Virus genome (UHGV): UHGV-0125199 | Direction: 5' to 3' (one strand) | Length of the DNA stretch: 64,000 nucleotides | Origin: a virus | Program-made: the position numbers and the translations under genes | Shown: positions 29,257 through 42,330 of the stretch, piece after piece | How positions within the stretch are numbered: position 1 is the stretch's first letter | Layout of the letters: each line of letters starts with the position of its first letter | The notes under the pieces: generated by a model | The model's input: only the letters and a program-made list of their open reading frames with translations | Database searches by the model: none | What the model was told of the DNA's origin: nothing

Positions 29257-30471
29257 ATGAGTGAATATGAAGTACGCGTTGACACGAATGTAGACACAAG
29301 TGAACTCGATTCCGCACAGAAAAAATTAGATAGTTTAGTTAAAAATGGAAAACATATTAAAGTTGATTTTGATATTCAGGGAATGAAGAACCTGAATAAG
29401 ATCAATGGTGTCTTAAAAGGAATCGAAAAAAATAATAAGATCAGTGTAAAAGCTGATATGGATACATCCGGAATTAAAAAAGGATTATCTGATATTGAAA
29501 AAGCGAAACGAAGTGTTTCTACTTTAAAGATTGATGCAGATGTTTCAAAAGCGAATGCAGATTTTAAAAAGTTTGAATCTCTTACGACAAAATCCGCGGA
29601 AAAGGCTCGAAAGTTATTATCTGACATCAATAAAGATATTAATAATGTGAAATTGGCTCCAAATGATTCCATTATGGAAATTAATTTTAAAAAACTTACC
29701 AGTGATTTAGAAAAGTACAGGAATCAGATTAAGGTTGTACAAAATGAGCAAAAAGCTCTTGGTAATTCTATTACATCTGTATCAAAATCATTTAGTAAAA
29801 TTGATGCAGTAACTGCCTCTAACAAGACCTTAACGTGGTTAAAAAACAATAGTCGCGCTGCAAAAGTATATGGCGATCAACTAAAAGAAATTGCAGAATC
29901 TCAGAGAAAAGCAACATCAGATTCAGAGCTAACTTCACTAAATAAAGATTTCAACAAAACTGTATCTGAGGCAAAATTACTTGGACTTACTGGTAAAAGT
30001 TTTACAGCGGAATTTAAACGTGCATTTTCTCAAATTGCACAGTTTACGCAAATTTATGGTGGAATTGAAAATGTAATTCAGACTATTCAAAACTCTGTTA
30101 TTGAATTAAAAAATGTTGATTCTATTTTAACAGAAATTTCTAAAACATCTGATATGACAACAGATCAACTTACAAAACTTGGAGAAACATCTTTTGATTC
30201 CGCAAGCAAGTGGGGAAAGAAAGCAAGTGATTACCTACTTGGTATCCAAGAAATGAGTAGATCTGGCTATTATGGCAAACAGGCTGAACAAATGGCTGAA
30301 ACAAGTATTCTTGCTCAGGCAGCCGGTGATTTAAATTCAGATGTTGCAAATAGTTATCTTTTGGCATCGAATGCCGCATATCAATATTCTGGAAATGTTC
30401 AAAAACTTAATGCATTGCTTGATGGACAAAATATGATTAATATAGTGGTCATGCTATATAGAAATATATAG
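29257..30471 (+). CDS. tail tape-measure protein, segment 1 (TP901-type core, N-terminal part)
   Basis: 'DYLLGIQEMSRSGYYGKQAEQMAETSILAQAAGDL…ANSYLLASNAAYQYSGNVQKLNALLDGQNMIN' is tape-measure core-like. The in-frame tail 'VVMLYRNI*' looks like intron read-through. Confidence 0.8.
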   Translation: MSEYEVRVDTNVDTSELDSAQKKLDSLVKNGKHIKVDFDIQGMKNLNKINGVLKGIEKNNKISVKADMDTSGIKKGLSDIEKAKRSVSTLKIDADVSKANADFKKFESLTTKSAEKARKLLSDINKDINNVKLAPNDSIMEINFKKLTSDLEKYRNQIKVVQNEQKALGNSITSVSKSFSKIDAVTASNKTLTWLKNNSRAAKVYGDQLKEIAESQRKATSDSELTSLNKDFNKTVSEAKLLGLTGKSFTAEFKRAFSQIAQFTQIYGGIENVIQTIQNSVIELKNVDSILTEISKTSDMTTDQLTKLGETSFDSASKWGKKASDYLLGIQEMSRSGYYGKQAEQMAETSILAQAAGDLNSDVANSYLLASNAAYQYSGNVQKLNALLDGQNMINIVVMLYRNI

Positions 30472-31639
30472 CTTCATAGTTGGCTTTTATCCCGGAAACT
30501 CCAGAGATGGACAATCGGGAGGATAAGTTAAATAAAATACGGTAGAAAGAGGATATTATAGAAATAAAATTAAAATCATGGCAAACTCTCGCAAACTGTA
30601 AATTTTGTAATAAAGAGTTTGTAACTACTAAATATAAGGTTAATAATAATAAAAATGGTGTTTTTTGTAGTAGAAGTTGTTATGCTGACTACAAAAAAGA
30701 AACGATGACAGGTTCACAAAATATAAATTATAAAGAAAAGGTAAAGGTTCATTGCGATAATTGTGGTAAGGAAATTGAAAAAATACCATCTTTAACACAT
30801 AATATAAACAAACAAGGAGAAAACCATAACTTTTGTTCTTATGAATGTTATTGGGAATTTCGTAAAAAATATTATGTCGGGGATAAATTATATAATACTG
30901 GAAAAAAGATGGACGAAATTTTTTGCAATAAGGTAAGAGAAGCAACATTAAAACAATATCAAGATGGTATACTTGATAGACAAACAATACCACAAAAGAT
31001 AGTTAATAGTATATTAGAAAAAAATAATATTAATTATATCAATGAAAAAACTTTTAAATATTATTCTGTCGATAATTATTTAATAGAACATAATTTAATT
31101 ATTGAAGTTATGGGTGATTATTTTCATGTGAACCCTTTAATTTATACAGATTCAAATGAGATGAATAATATGCAGAAAAAGGATATTGATAGAGACAAAA
31201 GTAAACATACATATATAAAAAAATATCAGGATGTTGAAATTTTATACCTATGGGAATCCGATATAAAAAATAATCCTTTATTATGTGAAGAATTAATAAA
31301 AAAATATATAGAATCAAATGGCAAGTTGGAAGAATATAATTCTTTTAACTTTTCTTTTTGTGATAACAATTTAAAATTAAATAACAATATTATTAAACCG
31401 TATTTTATTTAACCCCCTAACGACTAAGTTGTAATATGGTAACATATTGCACACGCCGACTTCGATAGATATAGTCTATCCGTTACCTATAAGTCCGTAG
31501 GAACGCCTAACGTAAAACGAGGGAAAAGATATAGTCTAGTCTCACGCTATAATCTAAAAATGAAACGTGAGAGGTAGGATTAACGTCCTATCCGCTTTAT
31601 TGTTATTTAACAATAAAGTCCAATGCTTTGTCCTGGAAG
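30447..31639 (+). mobile_element. group I intron in the tape-measure gene (boundaries within about 10 nt)
   Basis: Non-coding flanks around the HE ORF. R-like 'ACGACTAAG' and S-like 'AAGATATAGTCTAG' elements after the ORF. An ATAGT pentamer is shared at both exon edges. Confidence 0.6.
30705..31412 (+). CDS. EDxHD/Vsr-like homing endonuclease with N-terminal zinc ribbons (the frame is open from 30546, so the real start may be upstream and non-canonical)
   Basis: 'EVMGDYFHVNP' carries the E-D-x-H residues, followed by 'DIDRDKSKHTYIKKYQDVEILYLWESDI'. Several CxxC zinc-ribbon pairs ('CDNCGKEI…CSYEC', 'CKFCNK…CSRSC'). Confidence 0.6.
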   Translation: MTGSQNINYKEKVKVHCDNCGKEIEKIPSLTHNINKQGENHNFCSYECYWEFRKKYYVGDKLYNTGKKMDEIFCNKVREATLKQYQDGILDRQTIPQKIVNSILEKNNINYINEKTFKYYSVDNYLIEHNLIIEVMGDYFHVNPLIYTDSNEMNNMQKKDIDRDKSKHTYIKKYQDVEILYLWESDIKNNPLLCEELIKKYIESNGKLEEYNSFNFSFCDNNLKLNNNIIKPYFI

Positions 31640-32393
31640 CATAGTAATAGAACAAACTAACAGGAACAGTGTATCCATGCAGGATATGGCAGAAGCCACA
31701 ACTCAAGCAGCTTCAATGGCATCAGAATTGGGGGTTCAAGAAAATCAACTTTCTGCGATGATTGGAACAATTGAGTCCAGAACAAAAGCAGGTGGCAATG
31801 AGGTTGGTAATGCGATCAAATCATTGTTGATAAACGTTCAGAATGTAAATAACTCAAAAATTGCAGAAACGTTTAAAAAAGCTGGCGTTGCTCAGACAGA
31901 GTTTGTAAACGGTGTAGAAAAAATGCGTAATCCAATTGAAGTATTGGAGGATCTTGCGAAAGTATTTAATCAATTAGAAGAGTCAGATCCACTGCGTACA
32001 GAAATTCTTACAAATATTGGACAGAAATACCAAGCGAACAAACTAAGTGCTTTATTATCTGGATGGTCTGACTATGAAAAAATGCTTGTAGATTATTCTG
32101 AGGGTACAGGAAGTGCTGCAAAAGAAGCAGAAAAATCTGCAAATAACTGGGAAGGATCTCTAAATAAATTATCAAATACTTGGACTGGATTTATTCAGAA
32201 TTTCGCTAATTCCAACATGATTACTTCTGGATTACAAGGACTTACTGGAATAATTAAAATAATCGACACAGTTGTTTCAAAAGCAGGAACACTCGAAACT
32301 GTTATGGGAGTTTTAGGTGGAGGATTAGCGAGTAAAACAGGATGGGGTAAAACTATCGTAGTTTATAATGCCCCTTTCTATAAGGTTGCATAA
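31623..32393 (+). CDS. tail tape-measure protein, segment 2 (continues the core)
   Basis: 'SVSMQDMAEATTQAASMASELGVQENQLSAMIGTIESRTKAGGNEVGNAIKSLL' continues the TP901 tape-measure core. No RBS before the ATG, and an in-frame TAA lies 3 codons upstream. Confidence 0.8.
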   Translation: MLCPGSIVIEQTNRNSVSMQDMAEATTQAASMASELGVQENQLSAMIGTIESRTKAGGNEVGNAIKSLLINVQNVNNSKIAETFKKAGVAQTEFVNGVEKMRNPIEVLEDLAKVFNQLEESDPLRTEILTNIGQKYQANKLSALLSGWSDYEKMLVDYSEGTGSAAKEAEKSANNWEGSLNKLSNTWTGFIQNFANSNMITSGLQGLTGIIKIIDTVVSKAGTLETVMGVLGGGLASKTGWGKTIVVYNAPFYKVA

Positions 32394-32899
32394 TAACGCC
32401 ATGCAATTAACGTAGAGAGTGTTCATATTATATATCGTAGTGTAATATGACCATCCTTGGAAATATAGATTTTCTAAATTGTCGAATATCGGGGGAAGCC
32501 GTAAGCCTATTTATATAGGTACCGGAGCGATGCAATAAAAGCGTATTATTATATAGAAGAAATACGTTCGTGAAGGAATAAGCATTTAATGCGAAAATGG
32601 TAGTCCCGACGCACTATAACTAAAACATGGAAGTGTAGTTCCATATATAGGGCGCGAGAGACTGACAAGACATGACGTGATACAGGCGTAATTGTATCAT
32701 ATGGTACACAACATACAGTCCGTACCTGGGGAAAGCCCAGGGTAGTCAATATGAGATACGGCAGTATACACTACTGCTCTATTGATGCAAACTACACAAC
32801 CTGTTGCTGACTTGCAAAAACAGGACAGGATTATACGGCGTATCTCTCGTCGTTTTCTAATAGAGATAAAAAAATAGACACAAATTGTTTACATTCTAC

Positions 32900-32927
32900 T
32901 TGACTTAATACAAGAAGAATGTATAAT
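32900..32927 (+). promoter_or_regulatory. sigma70-type promoter: TTGACT, 16-nt spacer, TATAAT
   Basis: Exact consensus hexamers. Confidence 0.6.
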
Positions 32928-32970
32928 AATACATGAGTTAAAAAATATAGCTCGAAACACCACGATGTAA

Positions 32971-32998
32971 GGACAGGGGATTACCTCCTGTCCTTTTG
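32971..32998 (+). terminator. rho-independent terminator
   Basis: GGACAGG-ggattacct-CCTGTCC hairpin followed by TTTTGTT. Confidence 0.6.
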
Positions 32999-33140
32999 TT
33001 ATGTTGTGGAAACAAATAAATAGAATAATTTTTTCTTTCCAAAAACACAAGAGATATTTTAAATATAGAGAAAACAACTATATATAGGAAAAATTTATAT
33101 AATTAGTGTGTTTTTTATTTTTCCGCACTATATCTAGCGG

Positions 33141-33169
33141 TTGAACAAATTTAATAAAAAATGTATAAT
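33141..33169 (+). promoter_or_regulatory. sigma70-type promoter: TTGAAC, 17-nt spacer, TG-TATAAT
   Basis: Near-consensus -35 hexamer with an extended -10. Confidence 0.6.
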
Positions 33170-33271
33170 AAGATACACAAAAAATAGTCTAATTTATTTC
33201 TCACGTTATATTTCGACATTTTGTTTAATTTTTTTGATGTATAATTGCTTCAAATACCAAGGGGTGATTAT

Positions 33272-33484
33272 ATGAAGTTAGGTAAAAAAGGATCCATACA
33301 TACAAAAGAGGAGGTAAGACATATGGCAGTCTCAATGGCAGTTGTACCGTTATTAAAAGGGGAAGCGGCTACTAAAATCGTAGATGATTTTAAAAGCAGC
33401 AAATTAAAACCATTTACAGACGATCAACGTAAGAAGACTAATGCTAAAGTAGCTGAGATACTCAAAGGTAAACGTAATGGATAA
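33272..33484 (+). CDS. small basic protein (70 aa), putative antitoxin-like partner of the downstream GNAT gene (the ORF track starts it at 33245)
   Basis: ATG after AAGGGGTGA. Its stop overlaps the GNAT gene start (ATGGATAA). Confidence 0.45.
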   Translation: MKLGKKGSIHTKEEVRHMAVSMAVVPLLKGEAATKIVDDFKSSKLKPFTDDQRKKTNAKVAEILKGKRNG

Positions 33485-34034
33485 CACAGAAAACTTTCAA
33501 TATAAAGAAGAGTTACTAAGCAAAGAGTCATTAAGACATTTTATGTTAGTAGGTGATTTTTGCTGTGGTGCAGACAATCCATTAAATACTTTCTTATCAG
33601 ATGATGCATTTGATTATGCAGAAGAAAAGCAAGGACACACATACATTTTAATGGACAACGAATACACTTGTATACTAGCATTTTACACAATTAAGGCTAA
33701 TGCAATTCATACATTTAATATAGATACAAACGAATATATGGCGTTGCCTGTTGTGGAAATAGCAAGAATTGCTGTAGATTTTGACTTCCAAGGGAATGGT
33801 TTAGGGAAAATATTATTTTATGATTATATAATACCTAAAATAAAAAAAGTAAGTAAGATTATTGCAATATATGGTATCATTGTATTTGTAGAATCGGAAA
33901 ATGGTCAAGGAATACAATTTTATAATTCACTAGGATTTAAAAGAGCCAATAATGAAATACAAAAAGCAGTTGGTGATTCTTATAACGAAAAATGTGAATT
34001 GTATGTGCTGAAATTAGATGATATAAAAGAGTAG
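33477..34034 (+). CDS. GNAT-family N-acetyltransferase (possible AtaT/TacT-like toxin)
   Basis: Acetyl-CoA motif A 'FQGNGLGKILF'. About 185 aa. Translationally coupled to the small upstream ORF. Confidence 0.65.
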   Translation: MDNTENFQYKEELLSKESLRHFMLVGDFCCGADNPLNTFLSDDAFDYAEEKQGHTYILMDNEYTCILAFYTIKANAIHTFNIDTNEYMALPVVEIARIAVDFDFQGNGLGKILFYDYIIPKIKKVSKIIAIYGIIVFVESENGQGIQFYNSLGFKRANNEIQKAVGDSYNEKCELYVLKLDDIKE

Positions 34035-34056
34035 GGAGTAATCCTACTCTTTTATT
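34029..34056 (+). terminator. rho-independent terminator
   Basis: GAGTAGG-gagtaat-CCTACTC hairpin followed by TTTTATTAT. Confidence 0.6.
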
Positions 34057-34159
34057 ATATTGGCTGATGTTTTTATTTTATAGAAACATATGTTCAGACT
34101 ACTCTTCTATTCATTATTGGTATATAATGGAAATACTAAAGATGAATAGGAGTAATATA

Positions 34160-34969
34160 ATGCCGAAATTTAAAGCCAGTTCTGTTATTTCGATGCTGAA
34201 ACGGTTTACAGATGAAGAAAAAAATAAAAAAACTCAGTCTTGTCCGGAATTGAAGAATGAGATTAAAAATGTATTAGACGATACAAAGATCATTCTATAT
34301 AAACAATCCAGAGAGGACGCGATTAAATATATTTTATGGCAAGGATTATTGAATAGATATGGGATTTTTGGGAGCAACAGAAGACAACACCGCTTATTTG
34401 GTCAAGATAAAACAGATTATTATGCTCAAGAGTACCAACATGGAGATATTGTAAGTATAGACTTCGGAACATCGAATATTGGAAGCGAATTTTCGTTTAC
34501 TCATACCGCACTTGTTTTGCATGAATTTACTGATTTTTTAATTGTTATACCTATTACTACTGCTAAAGATGGTAGATTAGAGAATAAGCCATTGGATGAA
34601 CAGGAATCAACATTTGTAATACATAAAAGTGATTTTTCGTTTATAGAAGCTGATTCATATGTATTAATATACCAGATAAAATCTATTTCAAAAAATAGAA
34701 TCACGAAAAGAATTGGGAATATAACAGGGTCAAAGTTTTTGTGTGACGTTGATAGCGAAGTGTTTAACATACTATTAGATCCGCTTTCAAAAAAAATATC
34801 AGAAGAAATAACAAACCTAAATATAAAGATATCAGATTATAAAAATATGATTGAAGAAAAAGATGAAAAAATAAGAGAATTAAATTGCTTGGTGGAAAAT
34901 TTAAAACAAAATATTAAAAATAATGATAAAAATGTGTTGACAAATCTGGATTTCCATGATACCATATAG
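34160..34969 (+). CDS. MazF/PemK-like domain protein with a C-terminal coiled coil (the ORF track starts it at 34067)
   Basis: ATG after AGGAGT. 'HGDIVSIDFGTSNIGSEFSFTHTALVLHEFTDFLIVIPITTAKDG' matches the PemK/MazF 'GDIv.vdf…G.E…RPalVl…V.PiTs' pattern. Confidence 0.45.
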   Translation: MPKFKASSVISMLKRFTDEEKNKKTQSCPELKNEIKNVLDDTKIILYKQSREDAIKYILWQGLLNRYGIFGSNRRQHRLFGQDKTDYYAQEYQHGDIVSIDFGTSNIGSEFSFTHTALVLHEFTDFLIVIPITTAKDGRLENKPLDEQESTFVIHKSDFSFIEADSYVLIYQIKSISKNRITKRIGNITGSKFLCDVDSEVFNILLDPLSKKISEEITNLNIKISDYKNMIEEKDEKIRELNCLVENLKQNIKNNDKNVLTNLDFHDTI

Positions 34970-35010
34970 GCATAAAAGATAGATATTTTTAGCAATGGCT
35001 ATTAAATATA

Positions 35011-35050
35011 ACTACATGGAGAGGTCTTTACGAATAAACGTAAAGACCTT
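35011..35050 (+). terminator. rho-independent terminator
   Basis: GGTCTTTACG-aataaa-CGTAAAGACC (10 bp) followed by TTCTTACTATTT. Confidence 0.55.
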
Positions 35051-35074
35051 CTTACTATTTAAAAATATATTTAC

Positions 35075-35108
35075 GTTTTAATTAAAAAAGACTGGGTTAT
35101 CATACCTA
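35075..35108. terminator. bidirectional terminator (it serves the minus-strand gene 35201..35638)
   Basis: AGACTGGG..CCTAGTCT hairpin flanked by A-runs and T-runs on both strands. Confidence 0.55.
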
Positions 35109-35200
35109 GTCTTTTCTCATGTATATTTTTAAATTCCAACTACTCTCCTCCCCACTAAAAATAGCTCTTACAGTTATTACGCTTCCACTGTTTACCGATA

Positions 35201-35638
35201 TTATTTTGGTATATTATTGATAATTGCACTAATGTATTCCGGATCATTTATTATTGCATTAAAAATTGTACTGGCGAGTGACATAATTCCATGAATAGAC
35301 GCAACCCCCATTTTCTTCGCAGATTTTTTCGTTGCATTCCATATTGTCTCTGGTCTAACCGTATTTATAAAATTATGACCGCTCCATGAAATGTCATCAA
35401 CATGACCTGATAATTTTCTGTCTTTCCCATTATAATTTTTATATCCAGTAATATAGCCAGCGCTCATTAATTGTGTCAGTGTATATGCAACATCTTCTTC
35501 GGAATATTTATTGTCTTGTGATAGTTCATTTATTATCGTTTTAAAAGAAATACCTTTTATAGAAAAATATTCACACATCACAAGATTATCCTCTAAATAT
35601 ATTAATGTGTCTCTTACACATTCAGGATTTAGTTTCAT
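35201..35638 (-). CDS. hypothetical protein (145 aa)
   Basis: Minus-strand ORF with an ATG after GGAGGTATAAC (reverse complement). Confidence 0.55.
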   Translation of the reverse strand: MKLNPECVRDTLIYLEDNLVMCEYFSIKGISFKTIINELSQDNKYSEEDVAYTLTQLMSAGYITGYKNYNGKDRKLSGHVDDISWSGHNFINTVRPETIWNATKKSAKKMGVASIHGIMSLASTIFNAIINDPEYISAIINNIPK

Positions 35639-35668
35639 AAGTTATACCTCCAAGAAAGGAATGATTAA

Positions 35669-35890
35669 ATGAAAGATATTACTATTCATTATAAAACAGA
35701 TGATGAAATGACAAATAAAGATAATCCTCTTTATGATCTACGCAGCCGAATAGCGGTTCTAGTCGATGGAAAACCAATTGAAAGATTAAAAAGGTTCTCA
35801 ATTGATTTTGATGTTAACGACATAGAACCAACTTATTGTGTGGAGCAATATATGGATTTTCCCAATAACGATCAAGACTATACGATATAA
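35669..35890 (+). CDS. small hypothetical protein (73 aa)
   Basis: ATG after AAGAAAGGAATGATTAA. Confidence 0.35.
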   Translation: MKDITIHYKTDDEMTNKDNPLYDLRSRIAVLVDGKPIERLKRFSIDFDVNDIEPTYCVEQYMDFPNNDQDYTI

Positions 35891-35906
35891 GTCTATCACT
35901 CTCCTC

Positions 35907-36386
35907 TCACGGTTTCCATGTATGACCACAGTTAGAACATCTATTGACTGTTTTATTACTTCCTAAGAATCCAGTCAGGATTGAGTAGCCTTTTTGCCCG
36001 GCGGTAATTGATGTAGATCCACATTTCGGACAACGTGGTTTAGATTCCTCTGCTTTCTTACGTTCTTCCTCTGCTTCTTTGGCTTGAACTTGTGACCGGA
36101 ATTGCGACATTTTTAATTCATATTCTATGATATCGTCATCGTGTAATTTTATCATTGCATCGTAGAAATCTGTGGAATCTGAGATTTTTGACAGAATAAT
36201 AAAATCATCATCCGGCATTGATGTCATGATTATTGGATGACCATATGGGCATTCTGTAGCAGTGTCTTCATAGAAATACACATAACCATTTCTATAAATT
36301 CCATCTTGTATTTTTTCTTTTTTGCATGTTGGACATATTTTTAAATGATTAACCATATTTATCCCCCTATATATTTTTAATTGCAA
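35907..36386 (-). CDS. zinc-ribbon protein (159 aa)
   Basis: Two CxxC…CxxC ribbons ('CPTCKKEK…CPYGH', 'CPKCGS…CSNCGH'). RBS GGGGGAT precedes the ATG (reverse complement). Confidence 0.55.
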   Translation of the reverse strand: MQLKIYRGINMVNHLKICPTCKKEKIQDGIYRNGYVYFYEDTATECPYGHPIIMTSMPDDDFIILSKISDSTDFYDAMIKLHDDDIIEYELKMSQFRSQVQAKEAEEERKKAEESKPRCPKCGSTSITAGQKGYSILTGFLGSNKTVNRCSNCGHTWKP

Positions 36387-36510
36387 GTTATTTATATATA
36401 GTTTATCAGAACAATAGACGATTGTAAACTACGACTCTGATGCGGATAAATTCACATCTATTTTTGACAATTTTAAAAAGAAAACAAAACCTAAATTTAA
36501 TCAAGATACA

Positions 36511-39500
36511 TTGGATTTTGCAAAAGAATTCAATAAGCTGGGTAAGAATTCAAATATTGATAATATAGTTTCTCAATTTAAAGAGGTGGATTCTAGTGTT
36601 GTTGATATGGCAAAGTCTGTAAAAGATGGTTCTATGTCAATGGATGAGTTCATTGAAAAATCTACAAAAGCTACAACTACCTCTTCTAAATTCAGTAGAA
36701 TGGCAAAAACTGCTGGTACCGCACTGAAGTCAATTGGTGCTACTGCTCTGAATATGTTTGGTGGTTTTCTTATTGCTGAGGGGCTTAGTCTTGCAATAAA
36801 AGGAATTTATAATCTTATAAACGCAGACAAGATTGCAATTGAAAATGGGGAAAAGGCTCAACAGGAAATTAAGGAAGTATTTGATACTTACAACGGAAAA
36901 GTCGATACGATTAAAACGCTAGGAAAGAAATTTGCCCAAGATGCAGATTCAATCAAGACCACAGGTGATGCCGTAGAATCACTAACTAAAAAATATGCAG
37001 AACTTAGAAAAGGTGTCAGTTCAGATAATACAAATCTTACTCTTTCTGAAAAGGAATACCAGGACTATCTTGACATAAGCAATCAATTAGCTGAATCATT
37101 CCCATCACTTGTATCTGGTAGTGATGCAGCCGGAAATTCTATTTTAAATTTAGGTGACAATGCGTCTGTTGCCGCTGACAAAATGGAAAAACTGCAAAAA
37201 ACACAAATGACGTTGGCTCATAATGATATTGTTGATAAATCAAGAGATACATTTAGGGGTGCATTTGAAAAAGCAGACAATATTGAAGATGAGATAAAAT
37301 CATTAAAAGGTCAAGAAAAACAATTAAAAGAATCTGCTTCTCAAATATCTTTAAGCCGAGATGAAATCAGAGAACAGCTTAAAAGTGGACATCTTATCTT
37401 CAAGGATATGTCTAAAACCGACGCAGACAAGATGGAAAAGGCACTTGGAGCATATGTCGGGAAAGAATTGGGTCGTGTCAGACGGTCTGACGTATCTTTG
37501 GATGGTCACACTATTGACAGAATCGAATTTACAATTGATCCTGTAGTAGATGAGAACAAACTTAATGAAGCAACTGATATGATTGAGGCTAGAGTTTTAG
37601 CTGGAGAAGATGAGATTGCAGCTAAAAAAGGTGAAATACAATCCAATATTAAAGCACAAGAACAAAAGCAAAAAGAAGTCTGGAATAGTTTTGCTGAAAG
37701 CACAGTAAAACCTTATCTTGAAACATCTGCTGCTATTTCTGATATGCCTGTTGAATTACTTAATGCAGTAGAAAGTAATTTACAGAATTTAGATTGGAAA
37801 AAACTTTATAAAGAATACGGCGGAGATGCCGATCAGATGCTTTTGGATGAATTAGTTTCGCCGCTAAACAGTCTAGAAAAACCGGCACAAGAAGCTTTGA
37901 CAAAGGCTCTTAGTTTAGACCCATCAACAATGTCTATTGCTGAATATAATAAAGCTATTGACTCTGCTTTGAAGGAAGTTTCTGATAACAAAGCAACCAG
38001 AAAAGAATGGAAAAATAGATTCTTTAAATCTGCTATCGATTCTGCAACTGAAGATGCTAATGCATTAAAAGAGCAGTTTAAAGGCATAGATAAAGAGATC
38101 GACAACTTAAGCGGAGAAGACAGGGAGTTAGCATACCAAATTGCTATTGAGGATGAGGATTTCGACGGAACTTGGCAAGATGTAATGGACAAGATTAAGA
38201 CCATGAAAGAAGAAGCCGAAAATCCGATGACATTCAATCTTGGTACATTTACATCAGAAGTTGGAGATGCGATTGCTTTAATTGATACATTAAATGCTGC
38301 TCTTGCAAATAGTTATTCTGGAAAAGGATTAAGCGTATCTTATGAAGTAGACGAAGAAACTGGTGTTGTACAGTTAACTGGAGACATCGCAAATCTTCAA
38401 GCAGCTTATTCAGATTTAGAAGGATATGATCCATCTATTCTATTCGAAAGAACAGCAAATGGTGTACATATTAACAGAGAAGCTCTTAGACAATTACAGG
38501 CTCAAGAAGAAGCTTTGAACAAGTCTAAATGGCTCGAAGACGAAAAGAATCTTACAGATCAATTAGCAGTGGCTACCAACAAATTAGCAAATGCAAAGAA
38601 TTCTGGAAGTGAATCTGATGTTGCGTCCGCACAAGCAACCGTGGATTCATTACAACAACAGTTGGAGCAAGTTCAATTGTTGTCAGCTGCATATGACGGA
38701 GCCACTTCTGCATATCAGCAATGGATAAATGTACAATCATCTGGTGAAGATGGAGATATGTATAGAAACGTCTCTGAAACTATGAAAACAAGGGGCGATG
38801 CGTTATACAAAGAAGGTCGATATAATACAGAAGAATTTCGTGCAATTGCCGACTACTTCTCCAATGAAGATTTGTCTACTGCACCAATGGAAAAACTTGT
38901 TGCTGCTTATGAAAATGCTGCTAATGCAAGAGAAAGATACTTTACCGGGAATAAACAGGGTATTGATAATTTCATGGCTGATATGCAAAATGATGCAGAA
39001 TTAATGTCAAAAGGGATTGTCAAAACACTTGAAGACGGAACTATGGAATTCCAAACTGGTTCAGATAAAATATTGGCTGATAAATTCCATCTTAGCGAAG
39101 AAGCAATTCAATCTATTTTAAGAGCTGCATCAGAATATGATGATGGTATAAAAATAGGTAAAATTGACGGTTCAGAAGACTTTAATGCATCTATTGATGA
39201 AATGAAATCAAAAGCTGACGAAGCAAAAGGCAAACTTGAAGAATTAAAGAATGCTGGAAATCAGAGTCTGGATTTAGATTTTAATTTCGATAGTACAGAC
39301 TTAGAAGATTTAGATAGTCAGATTGAACGTGCAAAATCTAATCTTGATCAATTCAAAAATTCAGATGGTCAGATTGATTTAAATGTCGAAGGCGCTCAAG
39401 AAGCTGTTACAATTTTACAAACCCTTATTCAGCAAAAGATTATGGTGAGCCAGCCGGCAATTATGACAATTGACACGACTGGACTTGATGAAGCTACTGC

Positions 39501-42330
39501 TGATACGGTTTCTAAGTTGCAAGAATTTCAAGAGCAATTAAACACTGTTAATTCATTAGAGATGCAACAAGATTTTGGAATTCAAGTAGACACTAACCAA
39601 CTTGACGCTGCGAAGGCTAAGGCTCAAGAATTATTCTCAGAATTGCAAGGAAAATCAGAAGATGGTTCACTTGAAATTACACCAGATGTAAAAGTTGATA
39701 CAGGATCAATGGAGTCATTGGAGCAAAGTTTGTCTTCTATGACGCCTGAAATAAAAGCAAAAATTGTTCCAGATGGAAATGTATCTGATACTCTGGTTAC
39801 TGGTGATATTAAGGTTGAAGACCAGACTGCAAAGGTAGATTATGTAAGAGGAAGCCAAGAAGCTCCTGCTGACAGAACTGCTTCTGTTGATTATATTAAA
39901 AAGGGCACAACACAAATTGAACCTGCCGACAAGAGTGCTGCTGTAACTTATAGTAAGATTGGCGGAGAACAAGCACCTCCATCGGACAAGAACGCAAATG
40001 TTAATTATAAAAAAGGGGAACAAGAAGCACCGAGTAAGAAAAATGCAGTTGTCGATTATAAACGTGGATCACAAGAATTGCCTGATTCACCTAAAAGTGC
40101 AACTGTTAATTATACTCTTGGAAATGTTGCTACTCCACCAGACGCTTATGTAAAAGTACACTATGATACATCCGGAAAACCAAAAGGTAGTAGTCCAGCC
40201 AATGGTACTGCTCATTCACAAGGAAGTGCCAACTCTGGTCATGCATTTTCTAGTGGATCGTGGGGATTAAAACAACCTGAAAAGGGCGCTCTGATAAATG
40301 AATTAGGTGCAGAAATTATTGTCAGAAATGGACAGTGGTTTGTAGAAAATAATGGATATCCTACTATCACTAATCTCAAAAAGAATGATATCGTGTTCAA
40401 TCATGAACAATCCAAAGCTTTGTTAGAACGAGGATATGTTACTGGATCTCATGCTAAATTAGCATATGAAGGCAATTCTCATGCAAAAGGAACTGCATTT
40501 TCTGGGGGGTCTTGGACTTTTGGGAATACAGGTGGTGGAAACATTGGAGGCACCAACACTACTTCCAACAATCTCAACTCCGCATCAAATAATCTTGCCA
40601 AAGCTGCTTCTGATACTTCCAAAGCAGCATCTGATACATCCGAAGCTGCCGAGAAATTATCAGAAGCAGTATCCGGATACACGGACTGGGTTGAGGTGTT
40701 ATTCAAACGCTTAGAATCACAGTATGATTTGCTGATGAGTCAAATGGAGCGTATCGCACATCTCCCAGACAAGCAACAGAAACTGTATGAGGCAATGTCT
40801 AAGAACAGTGAACTACTGAATAGGACTCAGCAAGCAATTGGGACTTATCAAAGTCATTTTGATTCTATTGTACAACAGAGTGGAATAAACCCACTTATCG
40901 TACATCAGATTCAGAACGGGTCTATGGATATTTCAAAATACGACCAGGATACTCAAAAAATAATCAGTGAGTTGCAGTCTTATTATGATAAGCTCGTAGA
41001 CTGCAATAAACAGTACGATGACCTCTTAAATAAACAGAGTGAACTGGCGCAGACAGCATTGGATAATATTGAAGATTACATCGATATGATGACTGGAATT
41101 GAGTCCTCTGCTGTAGATTATCAGGAAGCATTACGTGAATTAGCAGCTGCAAAAGGAGAATCTGCATATTCCGATAATATGTATGGCTCTCTGCAAGAAT
41201 CTATTAAAAATCAACAGGACGTTGCAGGTAAATTACAGTCACAGATTAAATCATATCAAGATGAAATCAATAAACTCATGGCAAATGGGTATATGGCTGA
41301 ATACTCAACGGAATGGTTTGAAGCACAAGCTGCATTAAATGGATTCCGGCAAGAAGCTGCTGAAGCTGAGAAAACACTGATTGAATTACAAGATCAGTTA
41401 AGAGAACTTGATTTACTGAAACTGCAACAGGTTATTGATGAGTTAGACAGAACTGCAAAACGACTGGAAAACAATTCTGACCTTACAGAATCAAAAGGTG
41501 AACAGGTATCTGAAAAAGATTTACAGGCACAGCTTGACAATGCAAATGCACAGATTCAGGCAAATTACGATAAGCGGAATGAACTATTAAAGGATCAGGC
41601 AAAATATGATGTCGGTTCTGACAAATATAATGAAATTGCGGAAGAGATAGAAAAGCTCGATGACGCTATCTTTGATGCAATGGAGAACATTGAAGACCTC
41701 AAAAATAAAATCTGGGAAGTAAGATGGCAACCGTTCTTTGATGGACAGGAAGCATTAGGTGATCTGATTGACCAGACAGATGATTTAAGAGGACTTTTAA
41801 ATAGTGATGCTTTTCTTGATAAGAACGGCGGTTTAACTGTAGATGGTATTGCAAATTTGTCTTTGATTAGTCAGGGTATGAATGCTGCGAAACAGCAAAT
41901 CAAGAATTATCAAGAGGCATTGAAGAAGCTTGATGAGGATTTAAAGAACGGGAATATCTCAACAAGTGAATATAAGGAGCAGCAAAAAGAATTTCTCAAT
42001 CAGATTTCAAGCTCTGTTGGCGTTGTTGAAGACTACAAAGATTCTATTGTTGATCTCTATACAAAGATGCTTGAGCAAGAGAATGAAGTTGCTCAAAAAT
42101 CGATTGATAAGCAGAAGGAATTGTTGGATATCAAAAAGAAAAATGCTGATTACAATAAGACTCTGCGTAAACAGGCTAGAGATGTGAATACATTGAAAGC
42201 TCAGATTTCAGCACTCGAAGGCGTGAAGTTATTTGCGCGACTTCTATTTAATAGCGGGAAAGTCCCCACAACCCTATCTTGCTACAACGGAACTGGAAAC
42301 GGTAAACGTGAATGCGGTACGAGTTTATAA
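36511..42330 (+). CDS. tail tape-measure protein, segment 3 (frame open from 36418; the functional end is probably near 42208, with intron read-through after that)
   Basis: 1939-aa helical/coiled-coil protein with TM-like 'ALNMFGGFLIAEGLSLAIKG'. No RBS before the TTG at 36511. The terminal 'VKLFARLLFNSGKVPTTLSCYNGTGNGKRECGTSL' looks non-coding. Confidence 0.8.
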   Translation: MDFAKEFNKLGKNSNIDNIVSQFKEVDSSVVDMAKSVKDGSMSMDEFIEKSTKATTTSSKFSRMAKTAGTALKSIGATALNMFGGFLIAEGLSLAIKGIYNLINADKIAIENGEKAQQEIKEVFDTYNGKVDTIKTLGKKFAQDADSIKTTGDAVESLTKKYAELRKGVSSDNTNLTLSEKEYQDYLDISNQLAESFPSLVSGSDAAGNSILNLGDNASVAADKMEKLQKTQMTLAHNDIVDKSRDTFRGAFEKADNIEDEIKSLKGQEKQLKESASQISLSRDEIREQLKSGHLIFKDMSKTDADKMEKALGAYVGKELGRVRRSDVSLDGHTIDRIEFTIDPVVDENKLNEATDMIEARVLAGEDEIAAKKGEIQSNIKAQEQKQKEVWNSFAESTVKPYLETSAAISDMPVELLNAVESNLQNLDWKKLYKEYGGDADQMLLDELVSPLNSLEKPAQEALTKALSLDPSTMSIAEYNKAIDSALKEVSDNKATRKEWKNRFFKSAIDSATEDANALKEQFKGIDKEIDNLSGEDRELAYQIAIEDEDFDGTWQDVMDKIKTMKEEAENPMTFNLGTFTSEVGDAIALIDTLNAALANSYSGKGLSVSYEVDEETGVVQLTGDIANLQAAYSDLEGYDPSILFERTANGVHINREALRQLQAQEEALNKSKWLEDEKNLTDQLAVATNKLANAKNSGSESDVASAQATVDSLQQQLEQVQLLSAAYDGATSAYQQWINVQSSGEDGDMYRNVSETMKTRGDALYKEGRYNTEEFRAIADYFSNEDLSTAPMEKLVAAYENAANARERYFTGNKQGIDNFMADMQNDAELMSKGIVKTLEDGTMEFQTGSDKILADKFHLSEEAIQSILRAASEYDDGIKIGKIDGSEDFNASIDEMKSKADEAKGKLEELKNAGNQSLDLDFNFDSTDLEDLDSQIERAKSNLDQFKNSDGQIDLNVEGAQEAVTILQTLIQQKIMVSQPAIMTIDTTGLDEATADTVSKLQEFQEQLNTVNSLEMQQDFGIQVDTNQLDAAKAKAQELFSELQGKSEDGSLEITPDVKVDTGSMESLEQSLSSMTPEIKAKIVPDGNVSDTLVTGDIKVEDQTAKVDYVRGSQEAPADRTASVDYIKKGTTQIEPADKSAAVTYSKIGGEQAPPSDKNANVNYKKGEQEAPSKKNAVVDYKRGSQELPDSPKSATVNYTLGNVATPPDAYVKVHYDTSGKPKGSSPANGTAHSQGSANSGHAFSSGSWGLKQPEKGALINELGAEIIVRNGQWFVENNGYPTITNLKKNDIVFNHEQSKALLERGYVTGSHAKLAYEGNSHAKGTAFSGGSWTFGNTGGGNIGGTNTTSNNLNSASNNLAKAASDTSKAASDTSEAAEKLSEAVSGYTDWVEVLFKRLESQYDLLMSQMERIAHLPDKQQKLYEAMSKNSELLNRTQQAIGTYQSHFDSIVQQSGINPLIVHQIQNGSMDISKYDQDTQKIISELQSYYDKLVDCNKQYDDLLNKQSELAQTALDNIEDYIDMMTGIESSAVDYQEALRELAAAKGESAYSDNMYGSLQESIKNQQDVAGKLQSQIKSYQDEINKLMANGYMAEYSTEWFEAQAALNGFRQEAAEAEKTLIELQDQLRELDLLKLQQVIDELDRTAKRLENNSDLTESKGEQVSEKDLQAQLDNANAQIQANYDKRNELLKDQAKYDVGSDKYNEIAEEIEKLDDAIFDAMENIEDLKNKIWEVRWQPFFDGQEALGDLIDQTDDLRGLLNSDAFLDKNGGLTVDGIANLSLISQGMNAAKQQIKNYQEALKKLDEDLKNGNISTSEYKEQQKEFLNQISSSVGVVEDYKDSIVDLYTKMLEQENEVAQKSIDKQKELLDIKKKNADYNKTLRKQARDVNTLKAQISALEGVKLFARLLFNSGKVPTTLSCYNGTGNGKRECGTSL

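Follow-up and report, generated by a model that had tools for sequence, protein, structure and literature searches.

How is a gene translated when its first canonical start codon lies behind a complete, conserved domain? The question is raised by an open reading frame (ORF) in an intron of the tape-measure gene of UHGV-0125199, a gut phage genome of which we analyzed a 64,000-nucleotide (nt) stretch (hereafter the window; coordinates refer to it, and features lie on its + strand unless stated otherwise). An initial annotation of this DNA had described the ORF as a zinc-ribbon, Vsr-like homing endonuclease (HE) without a canonical start codon. Our analysis favors a mobile group I intron with a Vsr-like HE whose translation has a non-ATG start, at AUA or AUU, a reading to which we assign a probability of about 0.78. 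We computed the fold and homology of the protein, the secondary structure of the ribozyme, the conserved lack of a canonical start, and selection upstream of the first ATG. From these we infer the first codon, low expression, DNA cleavage with homing, and a link between translation and splicing. The comparison DNA consisted of database relatives and 160 loci from viral and metagenome collections; individual relatives are cited by labels such as L009 or P0003.

An intact frame in a tape-measure intron

The HE frame is open from 30546 to 31412 (288 codons); it begins directly after a TAG at 30543-30545 and ends with a stop at 31410-31412. Translation bore out the earlier statement that the frame is open from 30546, about 53 codons ahead of the first ATG: the first in-frame ATG, codon 54, is at 30705-30707, with no in-frame ATG, GTG, or TTG before it. 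Gene callers start at this ATG and report a protein of 235 amino acids (aa), while the HE ORF counted from ATA 30558 (30558-31412) has 284 codons. The 288-codon frame is not a product of chance, because a single search with the HE protein returned 548 related database clusters in an AT-rich setting and because the frame is intact in independent assemblies (L005, 100%; L006, 97%; L007, 94%; and L001). IMG/VR contig 3300029499_000097 (166 kb) is identical to the window across the HE gene, and near-identical copies of the gene are found on human-gut contigs of 47-322 kb. A megablast search of the locus against phage records gave no match. In L094, L096, and L156 the locus lies on metagenome contigs of 279-322 kb, which exceed the 166-kb viral contig; there the element may belong to a larger phage, or to a prophage inside host DNA.

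That the intron interrupts the tape-measure gene is supported, as the initial annotation had proposed. Exon 1 (29257-30437, from the ORF list and joined-exon alignments) ends GGA CAA AAT ATG AT, and exon 2 (31640-32350, downstream end approximate) starts C ATA GTA ATA GAA CAA ACT AAC. Exon 2 matches PF10145 (PhageMin_Tail, E = 4e-14), and once joined, the two exons can be aligned without a break to annotated tape-measure proteins from phages of Bacillus and other hosts. Two uninterrupted relatives, L085 (81% identity) and L089 (57%), read LDGQNMI/TNRNSVSM across the site (the slash marks the junction), with the intron-less junction sequence ...AATATGATT/ACTAAC.... Indirect support for homing comes from the presence of one and the same intron and gene at this site in lineages of 57-100% identity, together with the existence of intron-less alleles. 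When viral contigs were scanned by pattern for ORF-less copies of the intron, only contigs that already bear the HE gene were returned.

The open reading frame encodes a Vsr-like nuclease behind two zinc fingers

Single-sequence searches with the HE protein gave no match in the PDB and nothing informative in NCBIfam or PHROGs, so alignment profiles were needed. A profile of 72 sequences (alignment A2) had as its top PDB match the catalytic domain of I-Bth0305I (3r3p_A, E = 2.5e-5, 26.7 bits), the prototype EDxHD HE, which is encoded by the recA group I intron of Bacillus phage 0305phi8-36 (PDB 3R3P; PMC3239194). Profiles A1 (E = 5.5e-4) and A4 (E = 1.3e-4) matched the same entry. The Vsr-like domain lies at 30984-31331; Vsr itself was not found by sequence with a profile restricted to the C-terminal domain. 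With an AlphaFold (AF2) model built on A2 (predicted local distance difference test score 91.5), the top five Foldseek matches in the PDB were 1cw0, 3r3p_B, 3r3p_A, 1vsr, and 3hrl (DUF559-like), all with probability 1.00; E was 2.3e-4 for 1cw0 (Vsr), and 3r3p (I-Bth0305I) gave a target TM-score of 0.82 at 22% identity. The profile match and the structural search agree with the earlier placement of the protein in the Vsr-like/EDxHD family.

Putative catalytic residues are Q150 (30993), D176 (31071), E187 (31104), H194 (31125), and D217 (31194). In the hidden Markov model (HMM) alignment, D176 and H194, both invariant, align with D196 and H213 of I-Bth0305I, the two positions that were mutated to alanine in the 3R3P crystal (PMC3239194). 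E187 aligns with the glutamate of the I-E-V motif of I-Bth0305I (E206) and is taken to be the extra acidic residue described in PMC3239194; M189 aligns with N208, the variable "x" position. Q150 (in T-x-P-Q) occupies the position of E170 and is invariant in A1 and A4 and nearly so in A2. D217 (in RDKSK) is also invariant and resembles KDKRK and ERDRRD, and the HMM alignment ends before it. The peptides EVMGDYFH (E187-H194) and DIDRDKSKH (D213-H221), which the initial annotation had read as an EDxHD signature, are present in the translation, but the first glutamate of that signature is replaced by the invariant glutamine. The predicted motif is thus Q-D-x-H-D plus E187.

Two Cys4 modules precede the nuclease. 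Finger 1 (C18, C21, C41, C45; 30597-30680) lies wholly upstream of the first ATG, and its cysteines are kept in all lineages; finger 2 (C70, C73, C97, C101; 30753-30848) is a second stretch of the same family. Pfam zf-FCS (PF06467) scored 40 bits against a cut-off of 22.4 over the two stretches, with its best match at residues 16-49, and it matches all 19 members of A1. The alignment profile also matches the ZMYM5 finger 2das (E = 3.6e-4). The CxxC pairs had been called zinc ribbons; they do form Cys4 zinc modules ahead of the nuclease, but by PF06467 these are treble-clef modules of the zf-FCS/TRASH (MYM/TRASH-type) class and not ribbons. Domain searches matched no NUMOD or helix-turn-helix family. 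Overall, the identification of the intron ORF as a Vsr-like/EDxHD-type nuclease behind Cys4 zinc modules is supported.

A group I ribozyme holds the gene in its P6 loop

We derived the intron structure from eight relatives and scored covariation on an alignment from which the ORF had been deleted (A3), covering P1, P2, P3, P4, P5, P7, the hairpin after P7, two more hairpins, P8, P9, and P9.1. The structure comprises 71 pairs, with 98.2% of cells paired and 27 pairs changed on both sides. None of 500 shuffles matched this result, and slid partners gave at most three double-changed pairs. The intron is a group I intron. In the canonical model, which draws on the A3 covariation, an in-frame splice, and the intron-less homologs, it spans 30438-31639 (1202 nt).

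P1 (30433-30452) pairs exon AUGAUU (30433-30438) with the guide GGUCAU (30447-30452) around the loop AAUAUAGU. Its two U-G wobble pairs at the splice site are invariant in eight sequences, and two pairs change on both sides: the corresponding strands are GAGAUU/GGUUUC in L009, UCGAUU/GGUCGC in L099, and GAGAUU/GGUCUC in L100. P2 (30453-30472) is a hairpin, GCUAUAUA-GAAA-UAUAUAGC, in which four of eight pairs change on both sides. The initial annotation had assigned the guide to GCUAUAU, which is instead the 5' strand of this hairpin. The first P1 that we tried, AUAUAGU/GCUAUAU, showed apparent covariation in L002; it was dropped in view of the GAAA-capped P2 and of failed pairing in L009, L099, and L100.

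Covariation also delimits the 5' strand of P3 (30479-30484), P4, an A-rich J4/5, and P5 with a GAGA loop (together 30479-30525). P3 (30479-30484 with 31455-31460) and P7 (31422-31426 with 31532-31536, inside AAGAUAUAGUC) form the group I pseudoknot. The catalytic core (31422-31536) contains P7 (GACUA/UAGUC), a P7.1 hairpin (31430-31451), the second strand of P3 (31455-31460), two hairpins, P8, and AAGAUAUAGUC; the segment AGATATAGTC lies within it at 31527-31536. P9 and three peripheral hairpins follow (31540-31642) and include the proposed terminal G, G31639; the last of these hairpins covaries among relatives.

The HE gene enters this structure through P6. The 5' strand of P6, GUUAAAUAAAAUACGG (30527-30542), forms 16 perfect base pairs with 31398-31413, a 3' strand made of the last ORF codons, P-Y-F-I-stop, plus one base (CCG UAU UUU AUU UAA C). 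The duplex has a free energy of -15 to -21 kcal/mol in all eight lineages versus a shuffled mean of -3 to -6. Since 30527-30542 pairs with the end of the ORF, the P6 loop contains the Shine-Dalgarno (SD) sequence as well as the start codon and the entire ORF; and since the ORF end is the 3' strand of P6, this helix has to be opened by a ribosome that terminates there. In L009, L098, L099, P0003, and P0025 the ORF does not stop at P6 but continues into J6/7 and the P7 strand, so that the proteins bear C-terminal tails (for example, ...NPLTTK), a "core creep" into the ribozyme.

Splice sites and the spliced message

The 5' splice site lies at the P1 wobble pairs, after U30437 or U30438, and not after 30446. 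Of the interval first proposed for the intron, 30447-31639, the 3' end is kept at the proposed terminal G31639, and the 5' site moves 9-10 nt further upstream. The ATAGT sequence present at 30442-30446 and 31641-31645, to which the splice ambiguity had been attributed, is not its source. U30437 with G31639 is the sole canonical in-frame solution in the window; an intron at 30439-31640 (U30438 with C31640) would give an identical protein. A canonical U(-1) and a terminal G can be placed in frame in every lineage. The window clade would use the first wobble U and a G inside the last hairpin; L009, L098, L099, L100, and L156 would use the second wobble U and a conserved G just past the last hairpin. 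We regard the canonical model, with its predicted junction ...AUGAU(C/U)AUAGUAAUAGAACAAACU, as the likely one. The five extra residues that it would leave in the protein are IVIEQ in the window and KVTxx in the other intron-bearing lineages.

Two other junctions are in frame, and taken together they are an unlikely alternative. Joining 30438 to 31656 leaves no extra codons, agrees exactly with L085 and L089 (...AUGAUUACUAAC), and allows a 4-base-pair P10 (UAGU/ACUA). Against it, the intron would end in A or C rather than the universal G, and the 15 nt ahead of ACT, which encode the extra residues, keep a constant length and an open frame in all lineages although the neighboring hairpins differ in length; we give this junction an outside chance only. 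The junction of the initial annotation, 30446 to 31640 (...AUAGUCAUAGUA), would add eight codons. The P1 that it needs, AUAUAGU/GCUAUAU, can form in the window, L002, and L007, but not in L009, L098, L099, or L100, and one of its two strands already belongs to the covarying P2, which makes this model very improbable. At 31640-31655 and its equivalents in L009, L099, and L100, the motif A(A/U)AGU(A/C)A(U/C)AG is conserved at the nucleotide level despite a diverged flanking exon.

A probable near-cognate start codon, conserved among lineages

The SD sequence AGAAAGAGGA (30544-30553) shares its first two bases with the end of the in-frame stop TAG at 30543-30545 and is followed by two candidate near-cognate starts, ATT 30555 and ATA 30558 (30555-30560). 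The spacer is 5 nt to ATA and 2 nt to ATT. An AAGAGGA just before an ATT/ATA codon had been pointed out before, and it is part of this arrangement. In ten lineages, the stretch that separates the upstream stop from the first CxxC contains neither ATG nor GTG nor TTG (the window with L001 and L005-L007; L002; L012; L009; L098/L010; L099; L100/L156/L186; L184; L185). These ten lineages span 57-100% protein identity, and all carry the gene at the same tape-measure site. Each has a stop or frame break, a strong SD (AGAAAGAGG or GAAAGGA), a spacer, and an in-frame ATA (ATT in the L100 group). The spacer is mostly 5-6 nt; in L009 and L098, where two ATA codons stand side by side, it is 4-7 nt.

The predicted duplex between the SD and the 16S rRNA tail has a free energy of -8.5 to -10.3 kcal/mol in all lineages versus an ORF mean of -2.0, and the strongest SD of the region is the one that precedes ATA. 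At the internal ATG the corresponding value is -0.5 to -3.9 kcal/mol across lineages, with the exception of L156 (-7.8). Relatives with canonical starts place their ATG nearby: in L187 it lies 3 nt past the same SD sequence, and ATG-bearing relatives start two codons ahead of LKSW. Relatives of approximately 284-292 aa contain the first finger, and some of them begin M-[DET]-L-K-S-W.

Selection provides a further line of evidence. The 45 codons from L-K-S-W to the internal Met show no indels and no stops and keep all four cysteines. Their ratio of nonsynonymous to synonymous substitution rates (dN/dS) is 0.19-0.35, versus 0.06-0.21 in the remaining gene, with synonymous sites near saturation. 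Because these values indicate purifying selection in lineages that have no canonical start, the segment ahead of the ATG was translated throughout the divergence of the lineages. The best and simplest reading is initiation at AUA 30558, with AUU 30555 as a possible alternative; the first codon itself is deduced from the sequence. Non-canonical initiation, as the initial annotation had suggested, thus finds support in an SD and ATA/ATT retained in ten lineages and in selection upstream of the ATG.

Two further ideas were discarded. ATA 30564 lines up with the Met in P0016-type relatives, but L002 has AAA at this position; and occlusion of the SD by local structure was dropped because no pairing is consistent across lineages.

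In Escherichia coli, initiation at AUA or AUU reaches 1-2% of that at AUG, and infC and pcnB, which both start at AUU, are the sole genes reported to have a confirmed non-canonical start (bioRxiv 10.1101/063800). For intron ORFs, a review lists non-AUG starts as a recognized route to lower expression (PMC3073962).

Two side observations concern the start region of relatives. In L100 and L186, an out-of-frame AUG inside the P6 end opens a seven-codon ORF (AUG GUA GAA AGA GGA AAC UAU UAA) whose stop overlaps the ATT start, so that termination-reinitiation at ATT would be possible in these lineages; the window has ACG there and does not have this feature. Among distant members (37-42% identity), L081, L057-L061, L053, L076/L077, L038, and L050 have no canonical start or have Ile in place of the start Met (for example, FIPAKGQ in L081 versus MPAKGQ in L067), and near-cognate starts may be widespread in this endonuclease family.

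Points against this reading and alternative explanations

Several observations weigh against our reading of a mobile group I intron with a near-cognate HE start. For the ribozyme, Rfam searches gave no group I match, either across the whole window at the gathering score or at 30300-31800 at E <= 10, and RF00028 in truncated mode at 31396-31660 reached 9.2 bits (E = 6.9) against a cut-off of 50; the 870-nt ORF within P6 probably contributes to this miss. The predicted spliced mRNA carries five codons absent from intron-less homologs. For the nuclease, the first motif residue is Gln and not Glu (E170 of I-Bth0305I, E25 of Vsr), and the match of D217 to D222 of I-Bth0305I and D97 of Vsr is probable, by inspection only. 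For the start, no position is common to all lineages, as L100 has ATT in place of ATA and L012 and L185 show a shift of one codon. ATA 30558 and ATT 30555 are indistinguishable, though spacing makes ATA 30558 the preferred candidate. The HE gene family is decay-prone, given its frameshifted sister copies. Finally, the Met at 30705 is conserved in all eight aligned lineages, which leaves room for a second, shorter, minor product.

This conserved Met also agrees with a start at ATG 30705, which would yield a 235-aa, one-finger enzyme and make the 53 upstream codons an untranslated relic. Gene callers do pick the ATG in many relatives; this applies to at least 20 clusters, which are 234-245 aa long and have 81-82% query coverage. 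However, only -1.6 kcal/mol of SD pairing precedes this ATG in the window, the finger upstream of it is complete according to Pfam, the canonical-start relatives contain that first finger, and the 45 upstream codons evolve as protein, as described above. The initial annotation had named a start at 30705 as the outcome that would speak against its proposal; the weak SD and the finger conserved as protein contradict such a start, and we consider it improbable.

Slightly less probable still is that the gene is a decaying, unexpressed pseudogene that has lost its ATG, a usual late stage of the HE life cycle. Intact and decaying HE copies do occur side by side among close relatives: frameshifts or early stops are found in L003/L004 (2639-3504), L008, L011, L012, L013, L014, and L142, the L003/L004 lesion being one A missing from an A6 run (window 30778-30783), and L187 illustrates that an ATG can follow the same SD sequence. 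The window copy, in contrast, is intact across 288 codons, and ten lineages down to 57% identity have no canonical start yet remain intact and under purifying selection. Since these ten lineages are intact and constrained, expression has been required since their common ancestor.

We dismiss access to the protein by readthrough of the stop from a TTG/ATG frame at 30480-30545, or by frameshifting from ATG 30578. In favor of such routes, the upstream frame of P0003/L012 reaches back without a stop to an ATG/TTG within the ribozyme core, and the out-of-frame ATG in AAATCATGG is conserved, the K-S-W codons being the reason. Against them, the upstream stops vary by lineage (TAG, TGA, TAA, in different registers), so that there is no common readthrough product; the stretch is conserved as RNA (P4-P6) and not as protein; and ATG 30578 is 25 nt away from the SD, in a frame that ends after seven codons in the window.

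A model for expression and homing

In the model that we favor, the P6 loop of a mobile group I intron, located in the tape-measure gene of an approximately 166-kb gut phage, holds a complete HE gene. Translation would begin at a near-cognate codon, likeliest AUA 30558, located 5 nt past a strong SD; at the rate given above for such codons in E. coli, some 1-2% of that of AUG, little enzyme would be produced. Such a weak start would leave most transcripts free to fold and splice, and a ribosome that did finish the HE gene would have to melt part of the ribozyme, as the last five codons are the 3' strand of P6. The two N-terminal zf-FCS/TRASH fingers presumably read the DNA target. The C-terminal I-Bth0305I-type domain is presumed to cut intron-less tape-measure alleles site-specifically, so that the intron would be copied into them by homing.

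A broader proposal is more tentative, and we think it rather unlikely as a whole: that the clade-fixed AUA/AUU start and the P6-embedded codons form a built-in governor, and that the Gln defines a "QDxHD" zinc-finger subfamily with new target recognition. If it is true, IF3-sensitive initiation at approximately 1% would keep a toxic nuclease scarce and would prevent ribosomes from unfolding the intron, so that the tape-measure mRNA could still be spliced.

The locus is of interest for several reasons. I-Bth0305I is the sole EDxHD enzyme studied in depth in the cited literature, and the present clade comprises 548 database clusters from one search; its different DNA-binding module and changed motif residue bear on DNA recognition in the family and on the value of the family as a scaffold for nucleases. 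The locus also offers a clean comparative case of a conserved AUA/AUU start. For annotation, callers limited to ATG, GTG, and TTG shorten such proteins to approximately 235 aa and lose the first finger, as in at least 20 top clusters; P0001, P0004, and P0015 are gene calls shortened to the internal Met. Lastly, the overlap of the ORF with P6 makes the trade-off between HE translation and splicing directly testable.

Other features of the window

Downstream of the intron, the tape-measure frame breaks again after ...ASKTGWGK (approximately 32350) and resumes at approximately 36511. The intervening 4.1-kb gap (approximately 32350-36510) holds several ORFs on both strands; for the L003/L004 counterparts of two of these ORFs, 33477-34034 and 34067-34969, Pfam gives faint GNAT and weak PemK-like signals. 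A GC-richer, structured-looking stretch at 32400-32850 has no Rfam match at E <= 1. A drum RNA (RF02958; 42771-42881, +; 66.3 bits against a cut-off of 43) lies just 3' of the long tape-measure ORF at 36511-42330. Elsewhere, a full-length ROOL RNA (RF03087) occupies 1231-1828 (+; 340.9 bits, E = 6e-78), adjoined by transfer RNA genes at 1926-1997 and 2279-2351.

Comparison with known systems

The closest characterized relative is I-Bth0305I. Both HEs are encoded inside phage group I introns, and both are bipartite: a DNA-binding part forms the N-terminus and is followed by a C-terminal Vsr-like nuclease domain that corresponds by sequence (E = 2.5e-5) and fold (TM-score 0.82). The Mg-binding Asp (D176/D196), the general-base His (H194/H213), and the acidic E187/E206 align. 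The two systems differ in their DNA-binding modules (NUMOD/helix-turn-helix repeats in I-Bth0305I, two zf-FCS/TRASH Cys4 fingers here), in the first motif residue (Glu170 versus an invariant Gln), in the position of the ORF (P5 in I-Bth0305I [PMC3239194], P6 here), and in the host gene (recA versus tape-measure), and only the present gene has no canonical start. The spacing from the His to the putative final Asp is 22 residues here, 8 in I-Bth0305I, and 27 in Vsr, and is thus nearer to that of Vsr. E. coli Vsr (1VSR, 1CW0) shares the core fold, 1cw0 being the best Foldseek match, and by inspection the ...RD... and ...LWE... segments resemble its ERDRRD and VWE. In contrast to the HE, Vsr shows no detectable sequence match and is a mismatch nicking enzyme with an internal zinc site, no separate finger domain, and no intron.

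With phage IA-type introns (T4 td/I-TevI, SPO1/I-HmuI, and Twort), the present intron shares the P1-P9 core, the P3/P7 pseudoknot, AAGAUAUAGUC, an extra hairpin after P7, an ORF in a peripheral loop whose end enters core pairing ("core creep"; PMC3073962), and a stop in the exon frame soon after the 5' splice site (30469-30471 here). It differs in falling below the RF00028 threshold, in a predicted spliced product five codons longer than intron-less alleles, and in expression that seems to be limited by a near-cognate start and not by a hidden ribosome-binding site. As in E. coli infC and pcnB, a conserved near-cognate AUN start stands behind a good SD, which would imply low, IF3-sensitive initiation. 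The E. coli starts are AUU and those here mostly AUA, the gene here is a selfish endonuclease in a phage intron, and its IF3 dependence is a prediction. Non-AUG starts in intron genes are already known in kind, as is each of the other ingredients; what is new is an architectural and motif variant of the EDxHD/Vsr-like HEs, located in a tape-measure group I intron.

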